This document shows, piece by piece, positions 7,478-23,535 of a stretch of 32,000 bases of DNA (positions within the stretch are counted from its first letter, which is position 1; every line of letters begins with the position of its first letter). Source of the DNA: Acaryochloris marina MBIC11017 (lineage in GTDB: Bacteria > Cyanobacteriota > Cyanobacteriia > Thermosynechococcales > Thermosynechococcaceae); assembly GCF_000018105.1 (NCBI RefSeq), contig NC_009925.1, forward strand, positions 4,260,001 to 4,292,000, written 5' to 3'. A program made the position numbers and the translations under genes. The notes below the pieces were generated by a model. That model was not told the origin of the DNA, did not search any database, and saw nothing but the letters and a program-made list of their open reading frames with translations.

Positions 7478-7550
7478 GGGCGATTAGCTCAGTTGGTAGA
7501 GCGCTTCGTTTACACCGAAGATGTCGGCGGTTCGAGCCCGTCATCGCCCA
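7478..7550 (+). tRNA. tRNA-Val (anticodon UAC)
   Basis: 73-nt cloverleaf read by hand. Acceptor GGGCGAT/ATCGCCC plus discriminator A; D arm GCTC-AGTTGGTA-GAGC; anticodon arm CTTCG-TTTACAC-CGAAG (TAC at positions 34-36); variable loop ATGTC; T arm GGCGG-TTCGAGC-CCGTC. No encoded CCA. Confidence 0.93.
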
Positions 7551-7552
7551 TT
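7504..7552 (+). repeat. attL core: 3' 47 nt of tRNA-Val plus 2 nt
   Basis: cttcgtttacaccgaagatgtcggcggttcgagcccgtcatcgcccatt is identical to 23487-23535. Confidence 0.9.
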
Positions 7553-7664
7553 GGCTGTAAAACTATTCTGGTGAGGCTTGAAGGCTTTTATAACTAGCTT
7601 TCAGGTTTGTTTTATGTGAATCTCCACATCAAATTCATGTCCGTTAAAGCTGGTTAGTTCCTAC

Positions 7665-7690
7665 AAGTGGCCGGAAGAAGTGGCCGGAAG
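7665..7690 (+). repeat. tandem 13-bp repeat aagtggccggaag x2; candidate arm-type recombinase binding sites on the attL side
   Basis: Perfect tandem duplication that ends 9 nt upstream of the integrase start. The same TGGCCGGA(A) core recurs twice with the same 13-bp period at 23408-23429. Confidence 0.6.
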
Positions 7691-7699
7691 GATTAGCCC

Positions 7700-8845
7700 G
7701 TGAGAAGAAATAGTAGAGATAAAGTCCAGGTCACCGATGATCGAGGGATGATTAGACTCAGGTGGACACAACCTGGGGGTCAACGTACAAGTCTAAATCT
7801 TGGATTGGAACATACTAGAGAGAATATTGTTTATGCCAATGGCATTGCTAGACAGATAGAAGGAGATATGAGATGTGGTCAGTACGATATTTCAAAGAAT
7901 AAGTATAGACCCAAAACTATTGGTCATTCCGGCCTAAGCTGTTTTGAACTGTTTGAGAAGTTCACCAGGTACAAACACAACGAGGGTTTAATCTCCGCCC
8001 GGTCTGTAGAAACACGATATGCTCCAATTGCCACGCTTCTAAAGCAATGGCTGAATAAGCCTGCTCATGATGTTTCGCGAAAAGACACTGAGAACCTTAA
8101 AGCTGTAATGCTCGAACGCTGTATTGAGAGGACTGTCAAAGAGCGATTATGGATGATGAAGAGTTGTTGGGAGTGGGCTAAAGAATGCCAACACCTGGTG
8201 GGGGATAATCCTTGGATAGGATTAACAGCTTCAATTAAAGTTCAGCCAAGCCAAAGGCAAAAGCCATTCACTACGGTGGAGATAATAGCAATTCTAGAAG
8301 CATTTAAGCATCACCGCCATTATTCTCATTACGCTGATTTTGTTTATTTTTTATTTGGGGTAGCTACTCGACCGGGTGAAGCTATTGCATTGCAATGGAA
8401 TCATTTTGGCTCAGACTTTCAGACGGCTTGGATTGGAGAATCCATGAGCAAAGGACAGCGAAAGAGCACTAAAACCGGGAAAGCAAGGACTATAGTTTTG
8501 TCGAGTAGCATCCAGGTTATGCTCCAGCGCAGATGCCAAGAGCTACAGCCTGATAAGTATGATTTAGTTTTTCCCAGTCCGAAGGGGCTACCGATTTGTG
8601 AACGCAACTTTCGTGAAAGAGCTTGGAAAACAATTCTTGATCAATGTCACATTGATTATCGAAGGCCATATGTAATGAGACATACAGCTATTTCTCATGC
8701 TTTGGCTAATGGCGCTGATCCTGTCAGCGTTGCTGAGCAATCTGGACACAATAAGCGTGTACTTCTGGATACTTACGCTCATGTAATCAAGCCCCAAAGC
8801 GTATTTGTGGAGTTTTCAGGCACAATAACCAACCCTCGTGCCTAA
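7700..8845 (+). CDS. int: tyrosine recombinase / phage-type integrase
   Basis: Catalytic pattern: ATRPGEAIALQW (Arg box), VMRHTAISHAL (H-x-x-R) and GHNKRVLLDTYAHV (His...Tyr). The N-terminal KVQVTDDRGMIRLRW...LNLGL resembles an arm-binding/SAM-like N-domain. Starts at GTG 7700; the first in-frame ATG is 16 codons downstream. Confidence 0.92.
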   Translation: MRRNSRDKVQVTDDRGMIRLRWTQPGGQRTSLNLGLEHTRENIVYANGIARQIEGDMRCGQYDISKNKYRPKTIGHSGLSCFELFEKFTRYKHNEGLISARSVETRYAPIATLLKQWLNKPAHDVSRKDTENLKAVMLERCIERTVKERLWMMKSCWEWAKECQHLVGDNPWIGLTASIKVQPSQRQKPFTTVEIIAILEAFKHHRHYSHYADFVYFLFGVATRPGEAIALQWNHFGSDFQTAWIGESMSKGQRKSTKTGKARTIVLSSSIQVMLQRRCQELQPDKYDLVFPSPKGLPICERNFRERAWKTILDQCHIDYRRPYVMRHTAISHALANGADPVSVAEQSGHNKRVLLDTYAHVIKPQSVFVEFSGTITNPRA

Positions 8846-8889
8846 TACTGGTCGTTCTAACTTAGACGTGGATTAATTGAGTTGACCTC

Positions 8890-9777
8890 ATGGATAGCAA
8901 TATTACCCAGCAGAAATTTGTACTGAAACTTTTGTATTGGCCTTACAACGGCTTTAATTACCTAGTTCCACATAAATCAGCATTTGATCAGATTGTAAGA
9001 ATCCTTCCTGATGAAGAGTCGAGGGAAAGTTTTATGGTGATACATAACTTATCTCTTGACGAGTTGGGGGAAGCTCTAAAGAAGCCTCTAGAACGCAAGA
9101 AGGCTGATCTTTTTTGCTCACTGGCCAAAATTGTTGAATTCCCTTTTGATGAGTTTTATCTCAGAGAACTTAATCTTCAATATTTTCATTCGGTTATACC
9201 GACTCAGCTGAGAACTGAAAAACAAGTCTATGATTCGATCTCTCATTTGGACCTTGAGAAAGTAGGTTTTCCTCCACCCATAGGACCACCACCAAAGGTC
9301 TTCATCGATATAGATTTATTCCCCTTATATGGAGAGTGCCTGAGATCTAATTATGCTTGCATGATTAAGGCAAATAAAAAGGCAGAGGCCAATCAAGACG
9401 TCAAGAGATTATTCCAAGAAATCTTTGACGTGCAGAAGCGGTTGTCACGCTTATCCAGATCTGAATCTGCCGTTACAGGTGAGTTGTGCCCGAGCATTTG
9501 TAAGAATTGTGGGAAATATCAAGTTTTCGAGCGAGGAAAAGGGCGTGGTATACCTGAGTTTTGCGATGAGTGCAAAGATGATTGCTTGAGAGTGAGAAAC
9601 AATGGGAAGCGCCGGAAATCCAACAATGGTTGGAAAGTGGCTTTTGATGGGAGCCCCAGAACATGTCAATCCTACCGATATCGTGACACTTACTCAGATT
9701 CTTGCCAGGGGGCACGGAGACAAGTGAACAAAGATTTTATATGCAAATCCTGCTTCATCGCATACCAAAATCAGTAG
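8890..9777 (+). CDS. hypothetical protein with C-terminal Cys-rich zinc-ribbon region
   Basis: 295-aa ORF with ATG start. C-terminal CPSICKNCGKYQ...FCDECKDDC plus further Cys pairs (CQSYRYRDTYSDSC, CKSC). No family recognised. Confidence 0.6.
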   Translation: MDSNITQQKFVLKLLYWPYNGFNYLVPHKSAFDQIVRILPDEESRESFMVIHNLSLDELGEALKKPLERKKADLFCSLAKIVEFPFDEFYLRELNLQYFHSVIPTQLRTEKQVYDSISHLDLEKVGFPPPIGPPPKVFIDIDLFPLYGECLRSNYACMIKANKKAEANQDVKRLFQEIFDVQKRLSRLSRSESAVTGELCPSICKNCGKYQVFERGKGRGIPEFCDECKDDCLRVRNNGKRRKSNNGWKVAFDGSPRTCQSYRYRDTYSDSCQGARRQVNKDFICKSCFIAYQNQ

Positions 9778-9976
9778 ACTACGAATTTTGTTATTTCGAT
9801 TGCAGAAAATCTGCAACCATTTGCTGATGGACTCGCTTAAATAGGATTTATAAGTCCTAAGGTCTCACCAGAGCCAAAAGGATTACGGTCAAAAAAATTG
9901 TTATCCGGTAGTGCCAGCTCGCCAAAGTCGCCACTACCGGCATGTCACACAATCCAAATCCATTGGAGGATTTTTC

Positions 9977-10249
9977 ATGTCTAAGAAAAGTGTATACGAA
10001 TGGCCATCAATAGGTGGTTCAGTCTTAGAAAAACGCCTTGATATTAGAAAGACCCAAAGAGCAGAGCTTCAAAAGATTTTGTCAAGCCCTATCTATTGGT
10101 GGCAATTCCCAGGGGGAAGGAAGATTTTCTGGAACTGGAGACTTGTCCAAGATTATCTTATCCACGGTCCCGGACCCAACCACAACAGGCTTGTTGAGCG
10201 ATACCTCAAGTCGCTAAAAACCCCCTTAAGTAGCCAAGATGCGGCATGA
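9977..10249 (+). CDS. small basic protein, possible excisionase/AlpA-like DNA-binding protein
   Basis: ATG at 9977 is preceded by GGAGGA. 90 aa. The segment GGRKIFWNWRLVQDYL resembles the C-terminal wing of Xis/AlpA-type HTH proteins. The track ORF starts earlier, at 9911. Confidence 0.5.
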   Translation: MSKKSVYEWPSIGGSVLEKRLDIRKTQRAELQKILSSPIYWWQFPGGRKIFWNWRLVQDYLIHGPGPNHNRLVERYLKSLKTPLSSQDAA

Positions 10250-22828: not shown

Positions 22829-22928
22829 CAGCTTCGGATGCAATTAAACGGATGTCTGGCTGTGTGGCCTGGGCGTTAGTGAGCTGAGTATCGTTGCATG
22901 AAATTTGAACGATATCGATTTGAGACAT
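22743..22928 (-). CDS. hypothetical 61-aa ORF, first gene leftward of the divergent switch (possibly the 5' part of a frameshifted gene)
   Basis: ATG at 22928 is preceded by AGGTGA at appropriate spacing. Product begins MSQIDIVQISCNDTQLTNAQATQPDIRLIASEADG... The downstream ORF is in the +1 frame. Confidence 0.45.
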   Translation of the reverse strand: MSQIDIVQISCNDTQLTNAQATQPDIRLIASEADGLATYCRATLPALYLGLHSAEEWWSFL

Positions 22929-23014
22929 AATAGTTTCACCTCTTACGGGGTAGAGAGCGGTTCTTCTTTGCGGGAGTGGCCGCTCTCTTTTGATTTGTCC
23001 ATGCCTACATTATT

Positions 23015-23114
23015 CCCAGTCACAGGGGGTCATCAACTCTGCTGATTAATAATTACCCCAGTTACAGGGGTAACCTATAAGCTGCATATATCCCCAGTTA
23101 CAAGGGATATATGC
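23015..23114. promoter_or_regulatory. three related palindromic operator-like sites in the divergent intergenic region
   Basis: Site 1: cccagtcacaggg (23015-23027). Site 2: ttacccc-agttaca-ggggtaa (23053-23073). Site 3: gcatatatccc-cagttacaa-gggatatatgc (23084-23114, perfect 11-bp arms). Shared core is CCC(C)AGT(T/C)ACA(A)GGG. Confidence 0.65.
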
Positions 23115-23147
23115 AACAATGGATTCAATGGATTGGGTGATATCGAG

Positions 23148-23378
23148 ATGTCTAGAGGAACCCCTAAAGAGCTGCTGCCCAAAGAATTTATAGCTCAGCA
23201 AATCAAACCTGTAGGGGAGATGCCTGATGAGCCATTAGGTGCGAAACCGCTAGCTGTCCGAGTAGGCAAGAGTGTTTATGATGCCGTGACAGCTTTACCT
23301 AGGGCTGAGCGAATCACTTGGTTACGAAAAACGATTGCCGATGCGGCTCAGCGTGAGTTGATGGGAGGTGAGAAATAA
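23148..23378 (+). CDS. small putative DNA-binding regulator (or recombination directionality factor) next to attR
   Basis: ATG at 23148 (track ORF from TTG 23133). 76 aa. KPLAVRVGKSVYDAVTALPRAERITWLRKTIADAAQREL resembles small regulator proteins of cyanobacterial plasmids and islands. Immediately downstream of the operators. Confidence 0.55.
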   Translation: MSRGTPKELLPKEFIAQQIKPVGEMPDEPLGAKPLAVRVGKSVYDAVTALPRAERITWLRKTIADAAQRELMGGEK

Positions 23379-23407
23379 GAACGAACTTCCGTTGTTTCAG
23401 ATACCTT

Positions 23408-23429
23408 TGGCCGGATAGATTGGCCGGAA
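23408..23429 (+). repeat. two TGGCCGGA(A) copies with a 13-bp period; candidate arm-type sites on the attR side
   Basis: tggccggatagattggccggaa. Same core, orientation and period as 7665-7690. Ends 57 nt before the attR core. Confidence 0.55.
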
Positions 23430-23486
23430 AGGTTTTTCAAAAAGCTTACAAGACCTATCAAATATAGATTTCAGCCATAGGTGAAT

Positions 23487-23535
23487 CTTCGTTTACACCG
23501 AAGATGTCGGCGGTTCGAGCCCGTCATCGCCCATT
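23487..23535 (+). repeat. attR core: duplicated 3' part of tRNA-Val
   Basis: Exact 49-bp copy of 7504-7552. It lacks the 5' half of the tRNA, so it is not a functional tRNA. Confidence 0.9.

Follow-up and report, generated by a model that had tools for sequence, protein, structure and literature searches.

Published satellite families carry the small terminase subunit (TerS) alone, or the large subunit (TerL) together with a capsid module. Satellite phage P4, whose own products include Sid, Psu and Delta, relies on the helper terminase at cos. The core components of PICIs have been listed (PMC10085698), and the cf-PICIs are satellites with TerS and TerL, an integrase and a primase-replicase (10.1101/2022.09.08.507074; PMC10085698). 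The PICI-like tycheposons of Prochlorococcus and the marine VEIMEs integrate in tRNA genes, span 10-20 kb and are marine and in part cyanobacterial; they combine tyrosine recombinases and a primase/helicase with a phage-derived packaging gene (10.1101/2020.12.28.424599; PMC9618062).

The element described here lies in Acaryochloris marina MBIC11017, within a 32,000-nt stretch of DNA analysed as a whole (NC_009925.1, 4,260,001 to 4,292,000; hereafter the window). It resembles PICIs/SaPIs in size (~10-18 kb), in its site-specific tyrosine integrase and unique att site, in a primase-helicase gene with a candidate iteron origin at or by its 3' end, and in having terS, no detectable structural or lysis genes and accessory cargo after the packaging genes. 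Unlike them, it adds a large terminase and a Holliday-junction resolvase, lacks a recognisable alpA, merR, stl regulator or capsid-morphogenesis gene, has int co-directional with all late-type genes, with the divergent control region at the far end by attR, and resides in a cyanobacterium. TerS, TerL, integrase and primase-replicase are shared with the cf-PICIs; these are, however, also defined by capsid, protease, portal and head-tail adaptor/connector genes, in most cases together with an HNH nuclease. In the element these are all undetectable, and it has no room for capsid-type genes of this kind. Tycheposons and VEIMEs share its tRNA integration, tyrosine recombinase, primase/helicase and phage-type packaging gene, but are described with terS or an MCP gene whereas the element has terL and a resolvase, and Acaryochloris has a large, HIP1-rich genome whereas the tycheposon host is a streamlined picocyanobacterium. 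Similarly to P4, it has a tRNA-integrating tyrosine integrase and a D5-like primase-helicase (the P4 alpha protein) and would need a helper for all virion proteins; it differs in having its own terminase, and homologues of Sid, Psu and Delta were not found in it. The closest cultured TerL (32-35% identity) belongs to the Nodularia vB_NspS-kac65/68-type cyanosiphoviruses (Ravarandavirus) and shares with the element's TerL the deviant Walker A motif KxRQLGxS, but these phages are lytic and 140 kb in size, encode a complete virion and have nothing besides TerL in common with the element.

A 16-kb element in tRNA-Val(TAC)

ARAGORN and Rfam (RF00005, 68.6 bits) agree on a single, intact tRNA-Val(TAC) at 7478-7550 (+), the integration target. 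Its final 47 nt plus 2 nt constitute the attL core (7504-7552), which recurs exactly over 49 bp as the attR core (23487-23535), 15,983 bp away start to start, as an earlier note on this DNA had claimed. The 22-nt core GGTTCGAGCCCGTCATCGCCCA is found in the window in just these two places with up to 3 mismatches allowed (expected 0). The attL core supplies the 3' 47 nt of the intact gene, while the copy at the right duplicates just part of the gene, its 3' end, since ARAGORN gives no second tRNA in the 32-kb window. Positions 7553-23535 make up a site-specific integrative element of A. marina, 15,983 bp long, which is flanked by perfect 49-bp att cores, occupies the 3' end of tRNA-Val(TAC) and regenerates the tRNA.

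An empty attB, which had been suggested as a check in related genomes, was found in A. marina MBIC10699 (AP026075.1, L003). Window positions 1-7552 and 23487-32000 align there at 99.99% (2 mismatches in ~16 kb), the two blocks overlap by exactly the single 49-mer, the 15,983-bp insert is precisely absent, and an intact tRNA-Val is followed directly by TTAATGTAAGGCTT. A Logan contig (L004) has the same empty site, and the element itself is reproduced at 100% identity in three independent assemblies (L001, L002, L224). The 16-kb unit was inserted or excised as a whole, very recently. Of the earlier proposal that it is recent or still mobile, recency is borne out by the near-identical empty site, whereas continuing mobility is not, as neither an attP junction nor an excision product was observed; IS debris in the right-hand 2 kb adds a note of caution.

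The interior is indeed more AT-rich than the flanks (44.2% vs 47.1% GC for the flanks together; left 48.2%, right 49.5% without the AT-rich spacer 23536-25500). The HIP1 octamer GCGATCGC occurs eight times in the window against 0.14 expected, twice inside the element (12215, 17071) and six times outside (1056, 4516, 5412, 28828, 29838, 31305). These positions and counts are as previously given; the uneven split is weak evidence, not significant by itself, because the element makes up half the window (binomial P(<=2 of 8) = 0.145).

The tyrosine recombinase gene does start 148 bp inside the left copy, with a GTG at 7700, and the factual statements of the earlier note held throughout. The gene encodes an intact, full-length tyrosine integrase of 381 aa (7700-8845, +) with an arm-binding N-terminal and a catalytic domain (Pfam PF00589, E=1.8e-16; phrog_1, E=5.6e-41); the PF12167 match (E=5e-4, 20.4 bits) falls slightly under the curated cutoff of 22 bits. 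With its Phage_integrase and Arm-DNA-binding domains and the empty site, the reading as an integrase-mobilised element in tRNA-Val is supported. Two tandem TGGCCGGA arm-type sites, spaced 13 bp, lie in the P' arm (7668-7691, +) and two more in the P arm (23408-23431, +); these four copies of the 8-mer are the only ones in 32 kb, all in the two terminal pairs by the cores.

Three relatives have a common architecture with the element: L008 in tRNA-Pro, L014 in the same tRNA-Val site, and L053, a 12.8-kb Chamaesiphon element between 63-bp repeats. L008 has an identical TGGCCGGA pair upstream of int, and its integrase is 68% identical to the window's in the N-terminal and 48% in the catalytic domain. 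The L014 integrase, with the same tRNA-Val core, is 32% and 73% identical in these domains, and two copies of TTACCCCG replace TGGCCGGA, in step with the divergent N-terminal domain. On these comparisons the arm sites covary with the integrase domains, and the N-terminal domain probably binds the paired TGGCCGGA sites at both ends.

Replication and packaging genes

The nature of the element, with its replication and terminase set, was missed by the earlier note. A 1019-aa protein (11140-14199, +) was assigned as a D5-like (SF3) primase-helicase replication protein (rep) by AF2 modelling, Foldseek and homology. The model drew on an alignment of 31 sequences and mostly exceeds pLDDT 85 across residues 361-840; the best Foldseek matches are ASFV PrimPol, phage NrS-1 helicase and MPXV E5 (probability 1.0, E ~1e-7), at low whole-chain TM-scores (0.2-0.3). 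It is 29% identical to the phage Zeta1847 helicase/primase, and its homologues carry fused Toprim, DnaG or PolA domains. An iteron cluster at 13715-13967, made up of seven GGTGACGATA copies with both orientations represented, is a candidate replication origin; the window holds eight matches vs 1.1 expected, seven of them in this cluster. Analogous clusters occur at the rep 3' end in L008 (CGAACGATA, seven copies) and L053 (GGACGATA, ten copies), i.e., in 3/3 elements examined. A RuvC-like Holliday-junction resolvase follows (14258-14914, +; phrog_1770, E=4.4e-29; tblastn to annotated phage resolvases, E=5e-40), 82% identical in L008.

Next comes a 410-bp gap without ORFs (14915-15324), a candidate promoter and/or pac/cos site, which contains a 36-nt imperfect inverted repeat (15117-15234). 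TerS (HTH; 15325-15762, +) lies directly upstream of TerL, matches phrog_2538, 4044 and 4102 (E=3.5e-6 to 1.2e-5) and is 65% identical in L008 and L014; its assignment rests on E ~1e-6 plus gene position, which was counted against a satellite reading. Within the terminase module, a 197-aa protein (15716-16309, +) has 32-34% identical homologues by TerS in L008 and L014, is otherwise an orphan, and gave an unusable AF2 model (pLDDT 37). TerL (16321-17751, +) combines an ATPase with an RNaseH-like nuclease (Pfam Terminase_6C, E=1.3e-12; Terminase_6N, E=1e-6; phrog_2, E=1.8e-36), is 35% identical to a Nodularia siphophage TerL and has all clade-invariant residues in both parts.

Searches of Pfam, PHROGs (also at E<=2), PADLOC and PDB sequences gave no match to capsid, portal, tail or lysis genes, and the ORF list of the element holds no portal-sized ORF besides TerL and rep. 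IMG/VR contained no close TerL relative, and no phage genome matched the element; both count against a satellite reading.

Control region, cargo and IS debris

Beside int lies a 295-aa protein with a Cys-rich C-terminus (8890-9777, +), whose ~25% identical syntenic homologues adjoin int in L008 and L014; it had five homologues only among 1.8 billion representative proteins and no Pfam, PHROG or PDB match. A small protein (9911-10249, +; probable start 9977, 90 aa) is 79% identical to its L008 and 35-36% to its L014 and L053 counterparts, with no match in a family search, and is followed by a 268-aa ORF unique to the MBIC11017 element (10259-11065, +). Accessory ORFs of 132, 162, 126 and 75 aa occupy 17968-19364 (+; phrog_5176, E=3e-10), the 126-aa one being weakly HEPN-like (PF05168, E=0.0035, under the curated cutoff). 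A minus-strand cargo block of 113, 337 and 188 aa (19447-21510), the last with a hydrophobic stretch at its N-terminus, lies in the lowest-GC part of the element (39%).

Six-frame translation of 21780-22330 revealed IS debris, i.e., a C-terminal DDE transposase remnant (+, ends 21972) and, on the minus strand, part of an HTH transposase interrupted by many stops. Breaks in the Logan contigs at 21779 and 22000 show that 21780-21999 has further copies elsewhere in the genome. The debris is a sign of some decay and could have put regulation out of action, which counts against a satellite reading. Two overlapping small ORFs (61 and 97 aa; 22550-22928, -) run leftward from the control region and are a possible regulator, perhaps frameshifted. 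Three CCCAGTNACARGGG repeats between the divergent ORFs (23015-23106) are candidate operators (3 matches vs 0.04 expected), and in L008 the counterpart of the next gene is likewise preceded by three similar sites. In the window, this gene is directed toward attR (23133-23378, +; 76 aa from ATG 23148); it is 87% identical in L008 (dN/dS 0.19), had no match in family searches and is a candidate switch or excision factor.

A probable satellite family and its alternatives

A replication and terminase set without recognisable virion genes is satellite-like rather than that of a generic island or prophage. We consider that the element is probably (about 0.6) a PICI-like phage satellite, which would replicate, debranch and package its own DNA into helper-phage capsids. 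Against this, the analysis turned up no excision product or circular form of the element, no encapsidated copy and no helper phage. At least 11 element ORFs have no functional assignment and might include unrecognised structural proteins. Local gene order alone is non-diagnostic, because the related Nodularia phages do not have their portal gene next to TerL.

It is unlikely that the element is a decayed prophage that lost its structural and lysis genes, e.g., through IS-mediated deletion, with int and the replication and terminase genes as chance survivors. The IS debris would suit such a history, as would a TerL clade that occurs on 35-144-kb phage genomes and the fact that most other cyanobacterial TerL loci have nothing else in common with the element. 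However, the same reduced gene set recurs in four elements, across different genomes and tRNA sites, and two of the four have defined boundaries (16.0 and 12.8 kb). Int, a small gene and the terminase genes are common to the three relatives, while rep and a resolvase recur in L008 and L053 (where the resolvase is RusA-like and non-homologous to the window's) and are not universal in the family because L014 lacks them. L008 is similar in size, with no structural module where the window has IS debris, and the window's element moved very recently as one 16-kb unit. Between elements, dN/dS is 0.07-0.13 for TerL (vs L008 and L014) and 0.11 for the resolvase (vs L008), at dS 0.6-0.9, which indicates strong purifying selection on both.

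An island whose terminase-like genes serve another role, e.g., blocking the packaging of invading phages, and which spreads by transformation, generalised transduction or vesicles, is likewise improbable. Terminase-targeting interference is used by known satellites and prophages (PMC11417361; 10.1101/2025.02.27.640495), the weakly HEPN-like and other unassigned accessory ORFs would fit, and encapsidation was not seen. Yet TerS, TerL, resolvase, replicase and origin amount to a full set to make and package concatemers, TerL retains its invariant ATPase and nuclease residues, and PADLOC found no defence system on the element.

More doubtful still is a complete, very small virus with capsid, portal and tail proteins too divergent to recognise. 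Several ORFs of 130-340 aa do lack detectable homologues, but those of capsid size (268, 337 and 188 aa) do not recur in the other family members, and the conserved unknowns are the 295-, 90-, 197- and 76-aa proteins only; a portal-sized ORF is absent, and 16 kb (12.8 kb in L053) is too small for a tailed virion beside int, rep, resolvase and terminase. That the repeats reflect chance or an assembly artefact, with no discrete element, is already refuted by the exact 49-mer, which cannot arise by chance within 32 kb, and by independent assemblies of both states.

As a satellite, and judging by its sequence anatomy and its relatives, the element would be turned on and off by the three-operator divergent region at its right end. 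After excision, all plus-strand genes would form one co-directional block across attP, in the order 76-aa gene, int, conserved small genes, rep, resolvase, TerS and TerL. The primase-helicase may fire the adjacent iteron origin. By analogy with characterised satellites, the resolvase may debranch the replicated DNA, and TerS and TerL would recognise the element DNA and pump it into helper procapsids. Tails and lysis would also be the helper's contribution, since none of the element's genes is recognisable as a capsid, portal, tail or lysis gene. The shared gene set and the low dN/dS values suggest that these elements are a maintained family rather than products of decay.

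Boundaries of the element and its empty site

The single tRNA gene of the window, tRNA-Val(TAC) at 7478–7550, is left intact at the edge of a 15,983-bp insert (7553–23535). As an earlier note on this DNA had claimed, the last 47 nt of the gene and the following 2 nt (7504–7552, attL core) recur exactly at 23487–23535 (attR core), 15,983 bp downstream, and no other copy of the core exists in the window with up to 3 mismatches allowed. A 381-aa ORF begins at 7700, 148 bp beyond the left copy, where the note had placed the start of the integrase, and the interior, at 44.2% GC compared with 47.1% in the flanks, is richer in AT as proposed. 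The HIP1 octamer GCGATCGC, in which the host genome is rich, occurs eight times in the window (0.14 expected), at exactly the positions counted by hand (1056, 4516, 5412, 12215, 17071, 28828, 29838 and 31305). The split of two inside and six outside was counted correctly but falls short of significance by itself (binomial P = 0.145), and HIP1 depletion was dropped as a sign of foreign origin.

Alignment with A. marina MBIC10699 shows the locus without the insert. Window positions 1–7552 and 23487–32000 align at 99.987% and 99.988%, respectively, with one mismatch per block, and their overlap is precisely the 49-mer, i.e., a single core; the next bases after the intact tRNA-Val are TTAATGTAAGGCTT. 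The comparison with a relative that had been suggested thus found the insert absent, one 49-mer, and the tRNA joined to the right flank. The same empty site is present in a Logan contig (L004), while parts of the element occur at 100% identity in three further Logan contigs, and a MazG protein of the flank has an identical copy encoded in MBIC10699 (AP026075.1; PMC9324425). Since the empty site is precise, the 15,983 bp were gained or lost in one piece through conservative site-specific recombination, and this happened very recently relative to the divergence of MBIC11017 and MBIC10699. This supports the earlier interpretation of an integrase-mobilised tRNA-Val element: we are all but certain that this is a tRNA-targeting integrase element, precisely and recently inserted or excised.

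Three further observations concern the surroundings of the att sites. The flanks differ from MBIC10699 by merely 2 substitutions in ~16 kb despite a genome-wide ANI of 98.0 between the strains (PMC9324425), and this neighbourhood is unusually conserved or was recently exchanged. One Logan contig of a pair (L002, L224) begins at the exact left edge of the 49-mer (7504) and continues into the element, and the other leaves the element and ends at the exact right edge (23535); these ends were rejected as a hint of attP, as a graph branch fits attP or attL/attR alike. Immediately right of attR, ~2 kb of 34–37% GC (23536–25500) upstream of a 580-aa RTX/serralysin-like gene has no ORF >75 aa and no Rfam match, and it lies outside the element because it is identical in the element-free strain.

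Related elements and the modular integrase

Three related elements were used for comparison. An 18.5-kb metagenome contig (L008) carries an element that starts at tRNA-Pro(GGG) and has the same gene order as the window, with identities of 52% for the integrase, 25% for a 298-aa protein, 79% for an 84-aa protein, 41% for the 1019-aa replication protein (rep), 82% for the resolvase, 32% for a 166-aa protein, 65% for the small terminase (TerS), 93–95% for the large terminase (TerL) and 87% for the 76-aa protein, ahead of whose gene are three operator-like repeats. Its TerL (10856–11217) has an apparent frameshift near codon 45 which, because the contig has 3x long-read coverage, probably reflects faulty sequencing and not a pseudogene. 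An 8.3-kb Logan contig (L014) begins with the same tRNA-Val core as the window and encodes an integrase (54%), a 300-aa protein, a small protein, a 165-aa protein, TerS (65%) and TerL (88%); rep and resolvase are absent from these 8.3 kb. In Chamaesiphon sp. JTS-AC345 (L053), perfect 63-bp repeats at tRNA-Val(GAC) (3532–3594 and 16351–16413) lie 12,819 bp apart and enclose an integrase, a small protein (36%), a primase-helicase (43%), GGACGATA iterons, a RusA-like resolvase, a 175-aa ORF in the TerS position and TerL (37%). The integrase of this 12.8-kb element has an internal stop, and a second, intact integrase (16499–17587) lies beyond the second att copy, which makes this a tandem array.

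The gene at one end of the window element (7700–8845) encodes a tyrosine recombinase (PF00589 Phage_integrase, E = 1.8e-16; phrog_1, E = 5.6e-41), with an Arm-DNA-binding-type match at the N-terminus just under the curated cutoff. The R...K...xxR...H...Y motifs are evident in the alignment, with the first His of the HxxR box replaced by Tyr; the box reads Y-x-x-R in all three integrases compared (the window, L008 at 2102–3220 and L014 at 173–1279). The repeat TGGCCGGA occurs four times in the 32 kb, always on the + strand, as two pairs with 13 bp spacing, one 116 and 129 bp right of the attL core and the other 79 and 66 bp left of the attR core. Such positions are classic for arm-type sites around attP.

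Comparison between elements links these sites to separate parts of the enzyme. In L008 the same TGGCCGGA pair precedes the integrase gene but the tRNA differs, and the integrases are 68% identical in the N-terminal domain and 48% in the catalytic domain. In L014 the tRNA core is the same but the arm repeats differ (two copies of TTACCCCG), and identity is 32% over the N-terminal domain against 73% over the catalytic domain. Judged from these alignments, the integrases are domain mosaics: the arm repeats change together with the arm-binding domain, and the tRNA core together with the catalytic domain. Both site assignments gain support from this covariation, a clean natural example of re-assorted integrase specificity.

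Gene content: replication, packaging and control

On the + strand from attL, the integrase is followed by a 295-aa Cys-rich ORF, ORFs of 90/112 and 268 aa, rep (11140–14199), the resolvase (14258–14914), a 410-bp gap, TerS (15325–15762), a 197-aa ORF, TerL (16321–17751) and four small ORFs, one of them weakly HEPN-like. The right part holds a minus-strand block of 113-, 337- and 188-aa ORFs, IS debris and two small leftward ORFs, and then a control region and a + strand 76/81-aa ORF (76 aa from the ATG at 23148) read towards attR.

The AF model of rep, built from a 31-sequence alignment, has pLDDT >85 for most of residues 361–840. Foldseek matched it to the primase-helicases ASFV PrimPol, phage NrS-1 and MPXV E5 (probability 1.0, E ~1e-7), with low whole-chain TM-scores of 0.2–0.3, and homologues carry fused Toprim, DnaG or PolA domains. 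These fold matches and fusions identify rep as a D5-like SF3 replicative primase-helicase. The iteron GGTGACGATA occurs eight times (1.1 expected), and seven of these copies, some in each orientation, lie within 13715–13967 at the 3' end of rep; analogues are CGAACGATA after rep in L008 and GGACGATA in L053. As the iterons sit within the rep ORF, where they code for a low-complexity, low-confidence, G-D-D-rich C-terminal tail, the same DNA would be both coding sequence and candidate origin. The adjacent gene encodes a RuvC-like Holliday-junction resolvase, which matches phrog_1770 (E = 4e-29) and, by tblastn, annotated phage resolvases (E = 5e-40).

TerS matches three TerS PHROGs at ~1e-6, with TerL immediately downstream, and had no tblastn match in phages. 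TerL has Terminase_6N and Terminase_6C domains (phrog_2, E = 2e-36) and is 35% identical to the TerL of a Nodularia siphophage. Its Walker A is of a deviant K-G-R-Q-L-G-L-S type with the lysine at the loop start, common to the whole TerL clade, Nodularia phages included. No close relatives of TerL were found in IMG/VR and JGI metagenomes; alignment-based searches through GTDB genomes and metagenomes yielded many TerLs with 30–39% identity, and more distant relatives (30–36%) reside on phage genomes or contigs of 35–144 kb. Most other cyanobacterial TerL loci share no further gene with the element, the exceptions being Chamaesiphon loci L053 and L049, so the wider TerL clade is not a satellite family. 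A quick NJ tree puts the Acaryochloris-type TerLs on a long branch of their own and the Chamaesiphon TerLs elsewhere among phage TerLs.

No ORF matched capsid, portal, protease, tail, holin or endolysin families in Pfam or PHROGs, even at E ≤ 2; the best 'portal' match of any ORF has E = 0.36 (10 bits). Beyond rep and TerL no ORF is portal-sized, and no capsid-morphogenesis homologue was found. A tblastn search with portal proteins of Nodularia phages and of locus L012 returned nothing anywhere, even on phage contigs, and is hence uninformative. PDB sequence searches with rep and the 295-, 268-, 197-, 337- and 188-aa ORFs gave nothing below E = 0.3; for the 197-aa protein a word-index search returned itself alone, and its single-sequence model (pLDDT 37) was unusable. 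Megablast of the element against phages, and of 21500–22560 against PLSDB plasmids, gave no match.

At the attR end, a divergent region between the ORFs at 22928 (−) and 23133 (+) carries three operator-like repeats, CCCAGTNACARGGG, in a stretch of 92 bp (0.04 expected). No alpA, merR or stl homologue was found, and neither the small nor the functionally unassigned ORFs have a credible Pfam (E ≤ 5) or PHROGs (E ≤ 2) match; at these thresholds assignments of the 90-aa protein as AlpA-like, the 113-aa protein as RelE-like and the 76-aa protein as ribbon-helix-helix were unsupported. The IS debris (21780–22330) comprises a DDE transposase C-terminal remnant and an HTH fragment riddled with stops. 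Logan contigs break off at 21779 and restart at 22000, on either side of the 220-bp DDE remnant (21780–21999), which indicates that this piece is repeated elsewhere in the genome.

A proposed satellite lifestyle and its alternatives

Judged by its genes, the element belongs to a putative family of terminase-bearing, capsid-less, PICI-like elements in cyanobacteria. Against published component lists for PICIs (PMC10085698), it has an integrase, a length of 15,983 bp compared with about 8–20 kb, a primase-replicase with an adjacent iteron origin, terS and no detected structural or lysis genes, TerL and the resolvase being additional phage-type but enzymatic genes; however, it lacks a recognisable alpA, merR or stl regulator and a capsid-morphogenesis gene, and its gene orientation differs. 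It shares terL and terS with cf-PICIs but not their defining set of capsid, protease, portal and head-tail adaptor/connector (10.1101/2022.09.08.507074). With P4 it shares only the D5-like primase-helicase, and psu, delta and sid were not found with PHROGs and Pfam. The nearest ecological analogues are PICI-like tycheposons and VEIMEs, described with a terS or MCP gene only (10.1101/2020.12.28.424599; PMC9618062); the tycheposon architecture, compared by description, is similar (10.1101/2020.12.28.424599). A limited literature search returned no description of this island, although an earlier one may exist elsewhere, and no satellite with TerS, TerL and a resolvase but no capsid genes.

We give a probability of roughly 0.6 to a full PICI-like satellite model, with its own terminase and helper procapsids. 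From the anatomy, the operator region of an excised circle would drive one co-directional block of the 76-aa gene, attP, the integrase, conserved small genes, rep, the resolvase, TerS and TerL; a maintenance regulator would be among the leftward genes. The primase-helicase would act on the adjacent iterons; a pri-rep-ori layout is known from SaPI/PICI. Phage resolvases remove DNA branches before packaging, and by analogy the resolvase would debranch replicated element DNA, the element's own terminase would pack it into helper-phage procapsids, and the helper would also provide tails and lysis. More tentatively, the element may represent an undescribed class of cyanobacterial satellite with a complete make-and-pack enzyme kit (D5-like primase-helicase with an iteron origin, Holliday-junction resolvase, TerS and TerL) but not a single virion protein, obtaining only empty procapsids and tails from a helper. 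This architecture seems to have arisen repeatedly from non-orthologous components: the resolvase is RuvC-like in Acaryochloris but RusA-like in Chamaesiphon, and their TerLs sit on separate branches of the phage TerL tree. If true, this would point to selection for the architecture itself.

A complete temperate prophage would differ in having capsid, portal, tail and lysis modules, none of which was found between the att sites. That the element is instead the decayed remainder of a prophage is unlikely: IS debris and a TerL of phage origin would fit, but four elements have the same reduced gene set, two of them bounded at 12.8 and 16 kb, and purifying selection is seen in a low dN/dS between elements (TerL 0.07–0.13 at dS 0.6–0.9; resolvase 0.11; 76-aa gene 0.19), so these genes are maintained and not decaying. 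An island that uses the terminase for defence or another role is likewise improbable; PADLOC detected no defence system. A tiny complete virus with unrecognisable virion proteins is very unlikely, as the capsid-sized unassigned ORFs are not conserved across the family. The chance that the repeats or the element are an artefact is negligible.

For the satellite model, integration itself is textbook, and the added value lies in the identity of the element and the lifestyle we infer for it. To our knowledge, satellites either use the packaging motor of the helper with at most their own TerS (PICI, P4, PLE, VEIME, tycheposon) or carry the motor together with their own capsid (cf-PICI), and almost nothing is known of phage parasites of large-genome, non-picoplanktonic cyanobacteria. 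A. marina MBIC11017 is culturable, and with a natural empty-site strain, MBIC10699, and phages of the host in existence the system lends itself unusually well to testing; the siphophages A-HIS1/2 infecting MBIC11017 have been isolated according to Chan et al. 2015, as cited in PMC6157547. If true, an element that has a motor and lacks a capsid would close the gap separating the two groups, needing a helper only for portal-bearing procapsids, tails and lysis, and satellites would extend to large-genome, non-picoplanktonic cyanobacteria. If the element packages from the integrated copy, adjacent host genes could be transduced as well.
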